Assembly (NCBI GenBank): GCA_019359315.1
Contig: JAHHHO010000021.1
Location: forward strand, 18,078 to 58,077
DNA length: 40,000 bases
Source of the DNA: Myxacorys californica WJT36-NPBG1
Lineage (GTDB): Bacteria > Cyanobacteriota > Cyanobacteriia > Leptolyngbyales > Leptolyngbyaceae
Direction: 5' to 3'
The notes beneath the pieces were generated by a model, which saw only the letters and a list, made by a program, of their open reading frames with translations, was not told the DNA's origin and did no database searches. Each line of letters opens with the position of its first letter. The first letter of the stretch is position 1. The position numbers were made by a program, and so were the translations under genes. Shown here piece by piece: positions 32,563 through 37,997 of this stretch.

Positions 32563-33078
32563 CTATCGAGAAGATCTGCTCCGCTCCTTCATTCTCTCAC
32601 CCACCTCTTCAAATTTGCTAGTGAGGCGATCGCTCCATTCCTTAATGTGTTCATCCACCTCTTCAAATTTGCTGGTGAGGCGATCGCCTAGCTGATCAAT
32701 CATCTCATCATTAATGCCGAAATCTCCATCATCTTCGATATCAGAATCTCTATTATCATCTGCCTCAAACCTTTTCCGTCCTCTGCTGCTGAAACTGTAG
32801 GCATCGGCATACCCTATCTGCTTAAATTTTGGTGCTGAAGTTTCCTCCAAGCTTTGCTGTAGTGCCAGCAACCGATCGTCCTCTTCCTCGCCGCTTACTA
32901 GCCCAAACTCAAGACCATAACCGAATTGGGACGAATTCAGAGATTGTTGCAATGCCAGCAAACGATTGTCCTGTAGATTATCATCTTTTTCATAAGATGT
33001 AGCTTCAGAGAAACCCGCCTGTGCTTTTTGTTTGCAACGTTCGATTTGTTGTTCCAGGCTGAAGAGGCGATCGCTCAT
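32563..33078 (-). CDS. Acidic repeat protein (171 aa) with an N-terminal 'DRLFSLEQ' motif
   Basis: It begins 'MSDRLFSLEQQIE'. Internal copies are 'DNRLLALQQSL' and 'DDRLLALQQSL'. The C-terminal tandem 'GDRLTSKFEEVDEHIKEWS / DRLTSKFEEVGERMKERS' comes from a 54-nt DNA repeat at about 32590-32695. Confidence 0.55.
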   Translation of the reverse strand: MSDRLFSLEQQIERCKQKAQAGFSEATSYEKDDNLQDNRLLALQQSLNSSQFGYGLEFGLVSGEEEDDRLLALQQSLEETSAPKFKQIGYADAYSFSSRGRKRFEADDNRDSDIEDDGDFGINDEMIDQLGDRLTSKFEEVDEHIKEWSDRLTSKFEEVGERMKERSRSSR

Positions 33079-33184
33079 GCTTGTTACTCCTGACTTGTAT
33101 CATAAAGCGTTAACGTGACTTAACAGAATCCAGTTCGATGTTGGGTTTCACAAGGTTCAACCTAACCTACTTGCTGAGCCTAAT

Positions 33185-36100
33185 TTAGCCATCGATCAAG
33201 TCTGCAAGCGTATCCCAAGCATCTTTCTCGCGGCAGGTCATCATTTGCACAAACTTCTCTGGAGTGCCAGCTAGGTGAAGAATCGTGAGCATCGCTAGCC
33301 TGTTCTCGCTGGTCTGAGCGCCACCACCATGGATCGTGTCAGCCGCTGCAATCAAAGCTTTGGCTTGTGGATAGTAGAAATTGACCGCAGGCTTGACTTT
33401 CAAAGTAATGAACTTGAGGGCAGAGTAAGCTGTGATTAACAAACCAAAGGGAGTCACCTTAAAAGCCGTTTTGACAGCGTTCCAATCGATGGAGTTAATT
33501 GATGTATCGATCGCCGCTATGACCCTATCAGTCGTAGGAAGTTTGAGTTTCTTTTCCCCGTATTCCTTGAGCCGATAGAGACCAAGCTGTTTTTTCATCA
33601 TCTTGGGAAATTCGATCGTTGCCTGCCATGGAGTCAGGACATTAGCCCCAAAAGTAACCATAGTACCGCTATAACCCAAGATCGAATACCCAATTAAGCC
33701 TGCATTAATCAATTTATTAATGACTGCGCTCAGCCCAGACCAAACTCCCATAGTCGCTAAGGTTGGAATTGCGCCCTTCACCGTAGCAAACTTCTCCTTA
33801 AACCATTCAGACCAAGGCTTCTCGCCTGTCTGCCGACCCATGTGTTTGATCAGGTCAATCAGTGGCTGGAGTTGTTGATCGAGTAGGGCAAGTTCGGGGT
33901 AACTGCTGGTATCAATGTCAGTAGAAGCAGCAGATGGAACTTCAATGGTGAGTACCATACCGCGCTCTGAGTTCTTGTCGGTTGCCAATTTTTTGAGGAC
34001 AACCTCTGATTTCTGGGTAAATGTCTTAAATCGATCGCGAACGGCGGCAGCATCTAGGGAGATTCCCTGCTCTGCATGGGCTAAACTGCTAACCGCACTG
34101 AGCATATCGTTAAACAAGGAATGGGTTTCGTCGCCTAATATGTCCCATGCCACAGATAGTAATGTGGTTGCTCCAGTTTGATGAGCCAATGCTTTTAAAG
34201 CTTCGTCAAAGTTCAAATATCCCAGAAAATCTCTATATTGAGGAATACCCCATGCGCCGTACTTACTCTCAAATGCAAGACGACCCTTCAGGAGATCGTT
34301 AAATGTTTTGGCATTGAAGTCTGGTTCCAGGGGAATTTCCTCATTTTTGACAGCCGCATTCACTGCGAGCGCAAAAGTTGTCAATCGTCCACGAATGGCG
34401 GCTTCATCCAAAACCACTCCCTTTCTTGCCCTCGCCAAAGTGTCTGTTGCAGCTTCGATTTTGGTCATTTGGATTTTGGTCAACTGTGGAGTCGGCGTTT
34501 GCTCGTGTAAGATGTCCCAGGCTGTAGAAAGTTGGGAGAGAGCGCCACTATCTTTGGCTAACTCTGACAGTTTCCGGTTAGACGATAACTGACTTAAAAA
34601 GAACTTCAATTGAATCTGCCAATCTAAATTCTCAGACTTAAGTCGGGTTTCGAGCATGGCATTAAAATCTGATTCCAAGGACAAGGAATCTGCAAAATAG
34701 GCTCCTCGATCGCTTGCGAGCTGCTCCTCCAGATTCAAGGCAGCATACATTTCTGAATCAGGAAAATCAGATATTCCCTCATCCACTGATTGAGTTTTGC
34801 TCTGTTTAGGTGGGGTCCAAACCGGGATGCAACTTCCTTCGCCTTGAGCACTGGGCATAAACAAAATCTGCATTCCAATACAGGTCACATCGCCATTGAT
34901 CGCTGCATCAATGGGGTAAGTTCCATTTTTGTTAGGGTTGAAGTCTTTTCGTCCTGCAAAATACTGGAAGAGCGCATCAAAATGCTGTTCAGTCCAGGCA
35001 TCGGGGAAGAACGTAGACGCATCTTTTTTCTCTTTTTGGGTTTCTTTGTGCTGAATTTTTTGCTGATAAACTCCACATTGATCGGTTACAGTTGGTTTAC
35101 CAATTCGTTGGAATTTCGCATCTCCTGTTTCGTACCCCGTCCAGTGATAGCCCGTCAATGCCATGGGATCAGCCTTGGTACCACCGATGCTGATATGGTG
35201 CCAATACCGTTCCTTGAGATTTTGGGCGGTCACTTTAGGCGCAGAGGCTTTTTGCCAAAGTGTCTCGACTGCTGTACTGATATTGGGATCATCAGTTGTA
35301 GGGCTATATTTCTTGCCATACCGCTTCTTTGCTTCGCTCTTTAAGCGGGTTAAATACTTGCTTTTTAGCTCATTGGGATTGGGTGGAACATTCTCAAGTA
35401 GAGTGCTAATGTCGTTTTCCTCTAGTTGAAATTGCATGGCTGGTTGCCAAAGTTGGTCAACACTGAGCGCGGCAACATCTGCCGCTAATTCATCCTCATT
35501 CCACTCTAAGGGTTGGCCGATCGCAGGTGCTATAGGAGTGTCTTCCTCGGCATCGTAGCCGAATGAGGATGCTTTTTCCTCCTCATCTAAAACAGCATCG
35601 AATTCATCAAAGGTTTGCTCCAGGGAAAAAGTGCCCAGGTCAAACGCCGTGGCGTGAGCCATGCTCCTGCCCATCTGGTCAAACACATCATGAGCACTGG
35701 GCAGTTTCGGGGGTAAGGATTGTGCCTGGGACGGAGGCGCGTTGTCTTTCGGGGCAGGTCCTGGGGGAGCGGATCGCTCAGTTGGAGGAGCAGGCGTTGT
35801 CTCTGCTGGTTCGTAGGTTTTCTCACCCCGTAAGATGGCAGCAACATCGGCAGCAAAGGTCTCAGCATCAGCGGACTGGGAAGTCTCGGCCATGCTATGC
35901 CCCAAGGCATCAAGTTCCAGGGCATCAAAATCGATCGCTGCTGCTTGCTCGAAATCGATCGCTGCTGCCGACTTTTGCGGTGAATGAGTGGGATTCACCA
36001 CCGTGGCTTGCACTGGAATTGCCTCAGAAGCGGGATCGGGCTGACTATGGGAAATTAGAACATCTTCGTCATCGTGATCCAGGTCATTGGTGTGACTGGT

Positions 36101-37027: not shown

Positions 37028-37121
37028 CAGAAGTAGAAGGCTGAAAGGGGGTGAGAGTGGGGGAGCGGGAATTGAGGATCAGGGATTGGGAATGGGGTGT
37101 ACTTCGTTAAAGTGACGGTTG

Positions 37122-37997
37122 CTATGAGGGTAAGGACTTAGGATTGGGTGGGGGTGGAATGGGAGTGGTAGTGGTATCAAAAAGGTCGGGAAGTGGATCA
37201 TCCCAATCGTCTTGCAGATCTGCGATCGCCTGAGCTTCCACATCGATCGTGCGGGTTGTTTGGGCCGTGGCGAATGATGCATCCTCAAAGTCAGCACTGG
37301 GGTCGCCCCCGCGGGCAGACTGCATCATTTGCAGGAGAGAGCCATAGGACGAACCGTCGCCAGACCCATCCGTCCTGGGAGGAGGCGTTGAAGTTGGTAA
37401 ATCTGCATCGGGCAAGTCAATGTCTGGCAGGTCAATGTCTGGCAAATCAATATCTGGCAGGTTAAAGGCATCCGTTTCAGATATCAAAGGTTGCTCAGTA
37501 GAGGGGTCAGTAGCTGAGAAAGCCAGGGGGAGCAAGTGCTCTTCGTCGGGTTGGCCTGCTGTCGCCGCACCAGAGTGTGAATCGCTAAAAAAGGAGGGTT
37601 CAAGCAGGAGATCATCTGCCTCTACTGCTGCATCCCTCAGTTGTTGTCGCATCATGTTGTATTCCAACCCTCTGGTTCGGCTTTCCAGACGATTTGCTAA
37701 GCTCCTGTAGGAAAACCAATCGGGTCTGGCAACAGAACTGGAAAACAATTCTGCCGCATCATCCGTAACTTGTTCATCTTCATATTGATTTGCAGTTTCA
37801 TTCTCATCTTCGTATTCATAGTCATCCTCATAGTCCCCTTCATCCTCTAACTCAAGGCGATCGCTCAATACAGGTGTCTGCTCATGCTCAGTCTGGGGTA
37901 ATTCGCTCCTGGAACCGTAGGCGGACTGCTTCCAGCCCAACAGAGATTGCTCGAGATCGAATAGGCGATTGTGGCTGGGGTGACTGGAGGAAATCAT
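37122..37997 (-). CDS. Highly acidic, probably disordered protein (291 aa) with an N-terminal 'NRLFDLEQSLLG' motif
   Basis: It begins 'MISSSHPSHNRLFDLEQSLLGW'. It has D/E/Y-rich runs and 'LPDIDLPDIDLPDIDLPDADLP', encoded by a 15-bp repeat at about 37396-37460. The tail is Pro-rich. Confidence 0.55.
   Translation of the reverse strand: MISSSHPSHNRLFDLEQSLLGWKQSAYGSRSELPQTEHEQTPVLSDRLELEDEGDYEDDYEYEDENETANQYEDEQVTDDAAELFSSSVARPDWFSYRSLANRLESRTRGLEYNMMRQQLRDAAVEADDLLLEPSFFSDSHSGAATAGQPDEEHLLPLAFSATDPSTEQPLISETDAFNLPDIDLPDIDLPDIDLPDADLPTSTPPPRTDGSGDGSSYGSLLQMMQSARGGDPSADFEDASFATAQTTRTIDVEAQAIADLQDDWDDPLPDLFDTTTTPIPPPPNPKSLPS

Follow-up and report, generated by a model that had tools for sequence, protein, structure and literature searches.

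What is the role of a short peptide that recurs at the start of three consecutive acidic proteins in a cyanobacterium? The proteins are encoded at 32563-37997 in a 40,000-nucleotide (nt) stretch of Myxacorys californica WJT36-NPBG1 (assembly GCA_019359315.1, contig JAHHHO010000021.1, positions 18,078 to 58,077), hereafter the window, to which all positions refer unless contig C125 is named. Translation of the open reading frames (ORFs) bore out the original prediction of three such neighbours with a shared N-terminal motif. Beyond that prediction, the three proteins were found to form the variable cargo end of a conserved cluster, the core of which comprises ~8 genes and includes an S8 subtilase and a TIG protein. 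Conservation of the motif is restricted to cargo, the cluster itself is conserved and keeps its gene order, and the cargo domains are toxin-like. With confidence that is about evenly balanced, we propose that the motif is a cargo-recognition tag on the effectors of a conserved, uncharacterized multigene polymorphic toxin system that occurs in cyanobacteria, filamentous forms among them.

The shared motif and the three cargo proteins

The three genes lie on the minus strand and are transcribed in the order 291-amino-acid (aa) adaptor, large toxin and 171-aa protein (Table 1), and aspartate plus glutamate make up 17-23% of the residues across all three products. The lengths of 171 and 291 aa were as predicted; the 1280 aa originally given for the toxin correspond to the ORF at 33185-37027, which uses an upstream GTG at 37027. 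Since toxin families P0006-P0021 share the start consensus MS.SNGYNPNSL, the true start is taken to be the ATG at 37018, which yields 1277 aa, and the GTG is probably not a start. The short repeats were reproduced in part: AFDW(D/N)EAI occurs three times in the toxin (residues 52, 159 and 184), with LEYE at only two of the three copies, and the adaptor holds LPDID three times plus one LPDAD, not LPDID four times. The adaptor also contains a conserved C-terminal SY(G/S/T)SLLQ motif, and its homologues constitute a rare family (P0001-P0005) in which an N-terminal NRLxxLDQALLGWKQ is conserved. Orthologs of the 171-aa protein at other loci (L012, L014 and L027) are 430 aa long and carry an additional C-terminal domain, and the 171-aa protein, lacking this domain, may be a minimal or degenerate cargo. 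No Sec signal peptide was found in the N-termini of the cargo proteins.

All three proteins carry, beginning at residue 3-10, a motif of the form N-R/S-L-F/L-x-L-E-Q-S/Q-L/I. As predicted, it recurs internally, once in the toxin and twice in the 171-aa protein, for a total of three copies in the latter. When the strict regular expression [ND][RS]L[FL].L[EQ]Q[SQ][LVI] was run against the 10,129 six-frame ORFs of the whole genome (5.97 Mb in 128 contigs, with the psbA gene of a cyanobacterium), only the three cargo proteins matched; composition alone predicts 0.0064 matches genome-wide, and the observed number was ~1000-fold higher. In this genome, a profile hidden Markov model (HMM) of the motif region also matched cargo only, and the motif was absent from the core proteins and from all remaining genes. 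Applied to the genomes of 400 further cyanobacterial species, the HMM found no N-terminal match, its only hits being weak chance internal matches in an unrelated protein. The scan that had been proposed with the original prediction restricted the motif to cargo, and in neither set was the motif common in unrelated acidic or low-complexity proteins. A generic low-complexity motif was ruled out by its uniqueness in the genome and by its absence from N-termini in the 400 genomes.

In an alignment of 31 cargo N-termini from syntenic loci, the leucines at columns 12 and 15 are invariant and that at column 19 is nearly so, whereas the flanks vary, indicating purifying selection on an L-x-x-L-x-x-x-L peptide flanked by N-R. 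At least eight further cyanobacterial loci encode cargo orthologs that keep the motif at their N-termini, and its conservation spans toxin families P0006-P0026 and adaptor families P0001-P0005. Toxin family members all keep NSLFALEQSL starting around residue 12 and repeat the motif once more near residue 100-150. The amphipathic moment of the motif region (100-degree periodicity, 18 aa) revealed no strong amphipathicity, which limits any claim of a helix to the i, i+3, i+7 leucine pattern.

A conserved core and variable toxin domains

Pfam identified a bacterial EndoU nuclease domain at residues 614-712 of the toxin (E 5e-6, above the gathering cut-off) and no family match in the C-terminal 536 aa. 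The N-terminal ~745 aa are common to a cyanobacterial family (Nostoc, Calothrix, Oscillatoriales) at ~40-55% identity, and the middle region is conserved as well. Across the orthologs, the C-terminal domains include EndoU, Ntox11, metallo-beta-lactamase (Lactamase_B), Gly_transf_sug and MLD. Judged from the sequences, this combination of a conserved N-terminal region with swapped, variable C-terminal toxin domains is the architecture typical of classic polymorphic toxins. The search for an immunity gene identified none; the downstream 171-aa gene bears the cargo motif and has no known immunity domain, and an immunity gene could lie elsewhere or have escaped detection.

The core is encoded immediately upstream of the cargo in the same orientation, mostly just past the window end (contig C125, L007). 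The gene order begins with the S8 subtilase, a peptidoglycan-binding/repeat protein and proteins of 590-625, 360, 750 and 450 aa, and ends with a 110-190-aa protein, a 255-265-aa TIG protein and the motif-bearing adaptor, toxin and small cargo. Here, the core proteins downstream of the subtilase and the peptidoglycan-binding/repeat protein are 625, 363, 758, 449, 189 and 265 (TIG) aa long. Within the core, only the S8 subtilase has a Pfam domain; it possesses a full-length Peptidase_S8 domain and no signal peptide and is present in every core instance. In PHROGs and NCBIfam, neither the cargo nor the core proteins matched any family. The TIG protein is 60-79% identical across cyanobacterial loci and is present even in distant, non-cyanobacterial versions, and its N-terminal motif WNLxxFxDSL(xxELD) is conserved in every lineage, including the non-cyanobacterial ones (L033, L034 and L045). 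The Trp/Phe-acidic motifs noted earlier in the 38820-39389 ORF and in the neighbouring S-layer homology (SLH) protein are present as listed. The TIG motif resembles these DNW and NWNLF motifs of the SLH and 189-aa proteins and may be a second interaction motif of the system. The SLH protein is composed of cytoplasmic N-terminal motifs, a repeat region, one transmembrane segment (residues 324-346) and a C-terminal SLH domain. Two long antisense ORFs in its repeat region are low-complexity artefacts of the repetitive sequence, not genes.

AlphaFold2 confidently modelled the 625-aa core protein (76-sequence alignment) as all-alpha with a predicted local distance difference test score of 85, and no structural relative was found in Foldseek searches of the PDB and ESM Atlas; an Atlas feature search was also empty. 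The 758-aa model starts with a beta domain, continues through a Gly-rich disordered stretch and ends in a C-terminal region of beta-sandwiches. Its Foldseek matches are generic beta-sandwiches (Ig/FnIII, arrestin-like Vps26 and factor XIII; TMq ~0.14) that do not identify the machine. An AlphaFold-Multimer-style prediction of the 625-aa protein (with its alignment) and toxin residues 1-45 gave a score of 0, which, with no controls, argues neither for nor against binding.

Distribution and genomic setting

BLAST detected the syntenic core and cargo in Calothrix HK-06, Calothrix PCC 7716, Dulcicalothrix desertica PCC 7102, Nostoc FACHB-87, Nostoc CCY 9925, Nodosilinea, two Leptolyngbyaceae metagenome-assembled genomes, metagenome contigs and the GTDB genome G477. 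In these loci, the motif-bearing cargo clusters with orthologs of the 38033-40000 genes, the neighbourhood that the original prediction had proposed to check. Core identities between loci are 50-79%, and the cargo is variable. Of 401 cyanobacteria sampled as species representatives, only 1-2 have the core, which is therefore rare at this level; even so, a protein library clustered at 50% contains 584 homologs of the 625-aa protein.

Distant versions of the core comprise S8, 625-like, 363-like, 758-like, 189-like and TIG-like genes. They were found on metagenome contigs beside a type IX secretion system (T9SS)-tail protein (L033), in a high-GC organism (L034) and, with several 363-like paralogs, on the Burkholderia pyrrocinia megaplasmid pBPJTT (L045), where the large effector-like neighbours are a 1254-aa N-acetylmuramoyl-L-alanine amidase, a 1151-aa adenylate/guanylate cyclase and a patatin. 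The cargo of the distant cores includes patatin, amidase, adenylate/guanylate cyclase and an AvrRpt2-like C70 protease fused to lysozyme and muramidase. This recurrence of the core with other effectors in distant bacteria is consistent with a dedicated toxin-handling machine.

The core is mobile. In Tolypothrix/Microchaete (Tolypothrix sp. PCC 7601, NZ_CP064881, L044), it resides on a mobilizable 195-kb plasmid, annotated as S8 peptidase, peptidoglycan-binding protein and then hypothetical proteins, and an IS701 transposase replaces the cargo. Here, the cargo cluster lies inside a Tn7-like island that extends from window position 25813 to ~53000 (genome coordinates, C125). TnsD/TniQ marks one end, and the other end in C125 (L007 14075-14893 and 15060-16949) contains TnsA, a possible rve-domain fragment of TnsB and glmS (the attTn7 site).

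Other genes in the window were also recorded (Table 1). A gene for DndB, a DNA phosphorothioation regulator, lies between those of two UvrD-family helicases (759 and 744 aa), which suggests that the island carries a phosphorothioate defence module of the Dnd/Ssp-like kind. Also on the island, a Dpd-like module for 7-deazaguanine DNA modification encodes two TGT-like proteins (one with DUF6884), a radical SAM protein, PTPS and QueC, the last in two ORFs, and the DEAD-box helicase and PD-(D/E)XK nuclease near it are possibly restriction components. The island also encodes an ISL3-family transposase and an IS4/5-family (DUF4096) transposase.

Table 1. Positions of the cargo genes, motif copies and neighbouring features in the window.
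Feature	Position	Strand	Remarks
Adaptor-like acidic cargo protein, 291 aa	37122-37997	minus	ORF translation
Adaptor motif NRLFDLEQSL	37941-37970	minus	residues 10-19
Large polymorphic toxin, 1277 aa	33185-37018	minus	ORF translation, from ATG 37018
Toxin N-terminal motif NSLLALEQSL	36962-36991	minus	residues 10-19, from ATG 37018
Toxin internal copy NSLFALEQSV	36638-36667	minus	residues 118-127
Small acidic cargo protein, 171 aa	32563-33078	minus	ORF translation
171-aa protein motif DRLFSLEQQI	33043-33072	minus	residues 3-12
171-aa protein internal copy NRLLALQQSL	32938-32967	minus	residues 38-47
171-aa protein internal copy DRLLALQQSL	32848-32877	minus	residues 68-77
Core TIG/Ig-like protein, 265 aa	38033-38830	minus	
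Core 173/189-aa protein	38820-39389	minus	motifs NWNLFDAA and RFDLFDAA; orthologs 109-128 aa
Core ~366/449-aa protein	39325-40000	minus	5' part past window end, to C125 ~58.5 kb
SLH membrane protein	30450-32297	minus	ortholog in some loci
SLH protein motif DNWALLQSFF	32226-32255		residues 15-24
SLH protein motif DNWDVLESMF	32154-32183		residues 39-48
Antisense ORFs in SLH repeat region	31326-32096, 31393-32079	plus	artefacts
TnsD/TniQ	25813-27762	minus	island end
IS4/5-family (DUF4096) transposase	29474-30232	plus	
Dpd-like module	20494-25673		
QueC, two ORFs	23829-24227, 24269-24817		
DndB and two UvrD-family helicases	12303-18339		
PD-(D/E)XK nuclease	11276-12361		
DEAD-box helicase, 1662 aa	6154-11142		
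ISL3-family transposase	1176-2837	minus	

Candidate functions of the motif

The cluster resembles polymorphic toxin systems in that large multidomain proteins pair a trafficking region, N-terminal and conserved, with exchangeable C-terminal toxins (EndoU, Ntox11 and others), closely related cargo differing in the toxin. The trafficking modules described for such systems are the Sec signal peptide or type II secretion system (T2SS), TpsA, PAAR with type VI secretion (T6SS), the Photorhabdus virulence cassette (PVC), LXG with the type VII secretion system (T7SS), PrsW and MuF (PMC3482391). In contrast, none of these modules is recognizable here, where the signal would be a short helix-like N-terminal peptide and the associated core genes are without known domains. 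The systems described by Zhang et al. 2012 (PMC3482391) and Kaur et al. 2020 (eLife) do not match the cluster, and no description of it was found in the literature on S8-associated toxin systems and on cyanobacterial polymorphic toxins with subtilase, SLH or TIG proteins. The S8-PTS (BetaH), an S8-associated system of polymorphic toxins, likewise places polymorphic toxins beside an S8 subtilase, a possible processing enzyme; however, it is a three-gene system of Firmicutes and Actinobacteria in which both peptidase and BetaH toxin bear Sec signal peptides, whereas the subtilase and cargo here lack signal peptides and ~7 further core genes are present. No BetaH-like domain turned up in the cargo, for which no BetaH-directed search was made.

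Payload loading signals of extracellular contractile injection systems (eCIS), including PVC, and the MIX motifs of T6SS effectors are short conserved N-terminal sequences on variable effectors and are thought to select cargo for a dedicated delivery apparatus. The motif described here is likewise short, conserved and N-terminal on effectors that vary elsewhere, but neither the cluster nor its vicinity has a gene for a sheath, tube, spike, baseplate, AAA+ ATPase or PAAR, and no T6SS or contractile injection system gene, including VgrG, was matched by Pfam or PHROGs in the core. A cargo signal of such systems was therefore ruled out. The genome's only Phage_sheath_1 gene is on contig C23 (L011), not C125, and may belong to a contractile injection system with no relation to the cluster. 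No microcompartment (BMC) or encapsulin (Linocin_M18) domain was found in the cluster.

The original prediction had interpreted the motif as a common recognition, loading or secretion tag, or as a docking motif for one partner protein. The shared N-terminal tag on co-operonic proteins, one with a toxin domain (EndoU), stood, and since the motif is conserved on the cargo of syntenic clusters, has invariant leucines and is absent elsewhere, a recognition, loading or docking signal fits better than chance or mere shared ancestry. For a motif confined to cargo, N-terminal, sometimes repeated and with invariant hydrophobic positions, a tag for cargo selection is the best explanation, and because the cargo lacks Sec signal peptides, any export would need a system-specific signal. 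We infer that the motif is recognized by a receptor, and it may serve delivery rather than processing. The tag would be a short stretch with N-R at its start and a hydrophobic face conserved through Leu at i, i+3 and i+7; a core component probably binds the tag to pick out, load or export the cargo, by analogy with N-terminal cargo signals of the type III secretion system (T3SS), T6SS (MIX) and eCIS/PVC payloads. The C-terminal toxin domains would then act on target cells, here EndoU and the unassigned C-terminal region and elsewhere Ntox11, metallo-beta-lactamase, MLD, C70 protease, patatin or lysozyme. The tag reader might be either a novel apparatus for delivery, in which case toxin domains against both eukaryotic and bacterial targets would be explained, or a subtilase-containing processing complex. 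It is conceivable, although doubtful, that the core is a new delivery apparatus without ATPase or recognizable channel, in which new folds (the all-alpha 625-aa, beta-sandwich 758-aa and TIG proteins) and a cytoplasmic subtilase handle cargo chosen by a short N-terminal helical tag, recurring with other cargo across cyanobacteria and other phyla.

Several observations weigh against a cargo-recognition tag. No receptor for the tag was identified, and the core has no recognizable ATPase (no Walker-A) or membrane channel, the sole transmembrane segment being that of the SLH protein, so that the route of protein export is hard to see. Among distant non-cyanobacterial cargo, the motif HMM detected one patatin only (E 7e-4), and the tag may therefore be clade-specific or have diverged in sequence between clades. 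Moreover, the adaptor and the small cargo are both tagged, and the tag may thus mediate cargo-cargo assembly, not recognition by the core. Assembly of this kind, for example of adaptor with toxin, is consistent with the multiple motif copies and with the adaptor, which always directly precedes the toxin and has the C-terminal SY(G/S/T)SLLQ in addition to the N-terminal motif, but the 171-aa cargo lacks any further domain through which it could assemble, and different proteins replace the adaptor in distant systems, and we consider assembly quite unlikely.

Cyanobactin pathways employ the subtilisin-like protease PatA on precursors with an N-terminal helical recognition leader. The combination here of a cytoplasmic subtilisin-like protease and a conserved N-terminal sequence on candidate substrates is similar, as a lead only, and the motif might by analogy with such leaders be a recognition or cleavage site for the cluster's S8 subtilase, with N-terminal and internal processing releasing domains. 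The leader-like placement, the internal copies as additional processing sites and the occurrence of the subtilase in every core would accord with such processing. We nevertheless regard it as rather unlikely, as the subtilase is kept in distant systems whose cargo shows no detectable motif, and precursors of ribosomally synthesized and post-translationally modified peptides (RiPPs) are short, as opposed to cargo of 171-1277 aa. A RiPP/cyanobactin pathway itself was ruled out by the size of the cargo and by the lack of YcaO/heterocyclase (cyclodehydratase) and PatG-like macrocyclase genes in the cluster. A duplicated N-terminus left among paralogous cargo genes by ancestry, with no specific function, would suit cargo related by recombination and sharing short repeats (AFDW, LPDID), but is very unlikely given that the leucine columns are invariant amid variable flanks across divergent cargo families and lineages, which argues for purifying selection, and that the motif also recurs internally.

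Known polymorphic toxin delivery relies on a small set of secretion systems, and each of these reads a cargo signal of its own. The logic of polymorphic toxins is familiar, whereas neither the core machinery nor its new folds nor the cargo tag appear in the literature searched or in Pfam, PHROGs and NCBIfam. A compact shared tag provides a tractable handle on an ~8-gene core of uncharacterized function. If the cargo-recognition tag is correct, the core may be a new machine for toxin delivery or processing, the tag could be used as a cargo signal transferable to other proteins, and the system might show by what route filamentous cyanobacteria bring their large acidic effectors to the targets.

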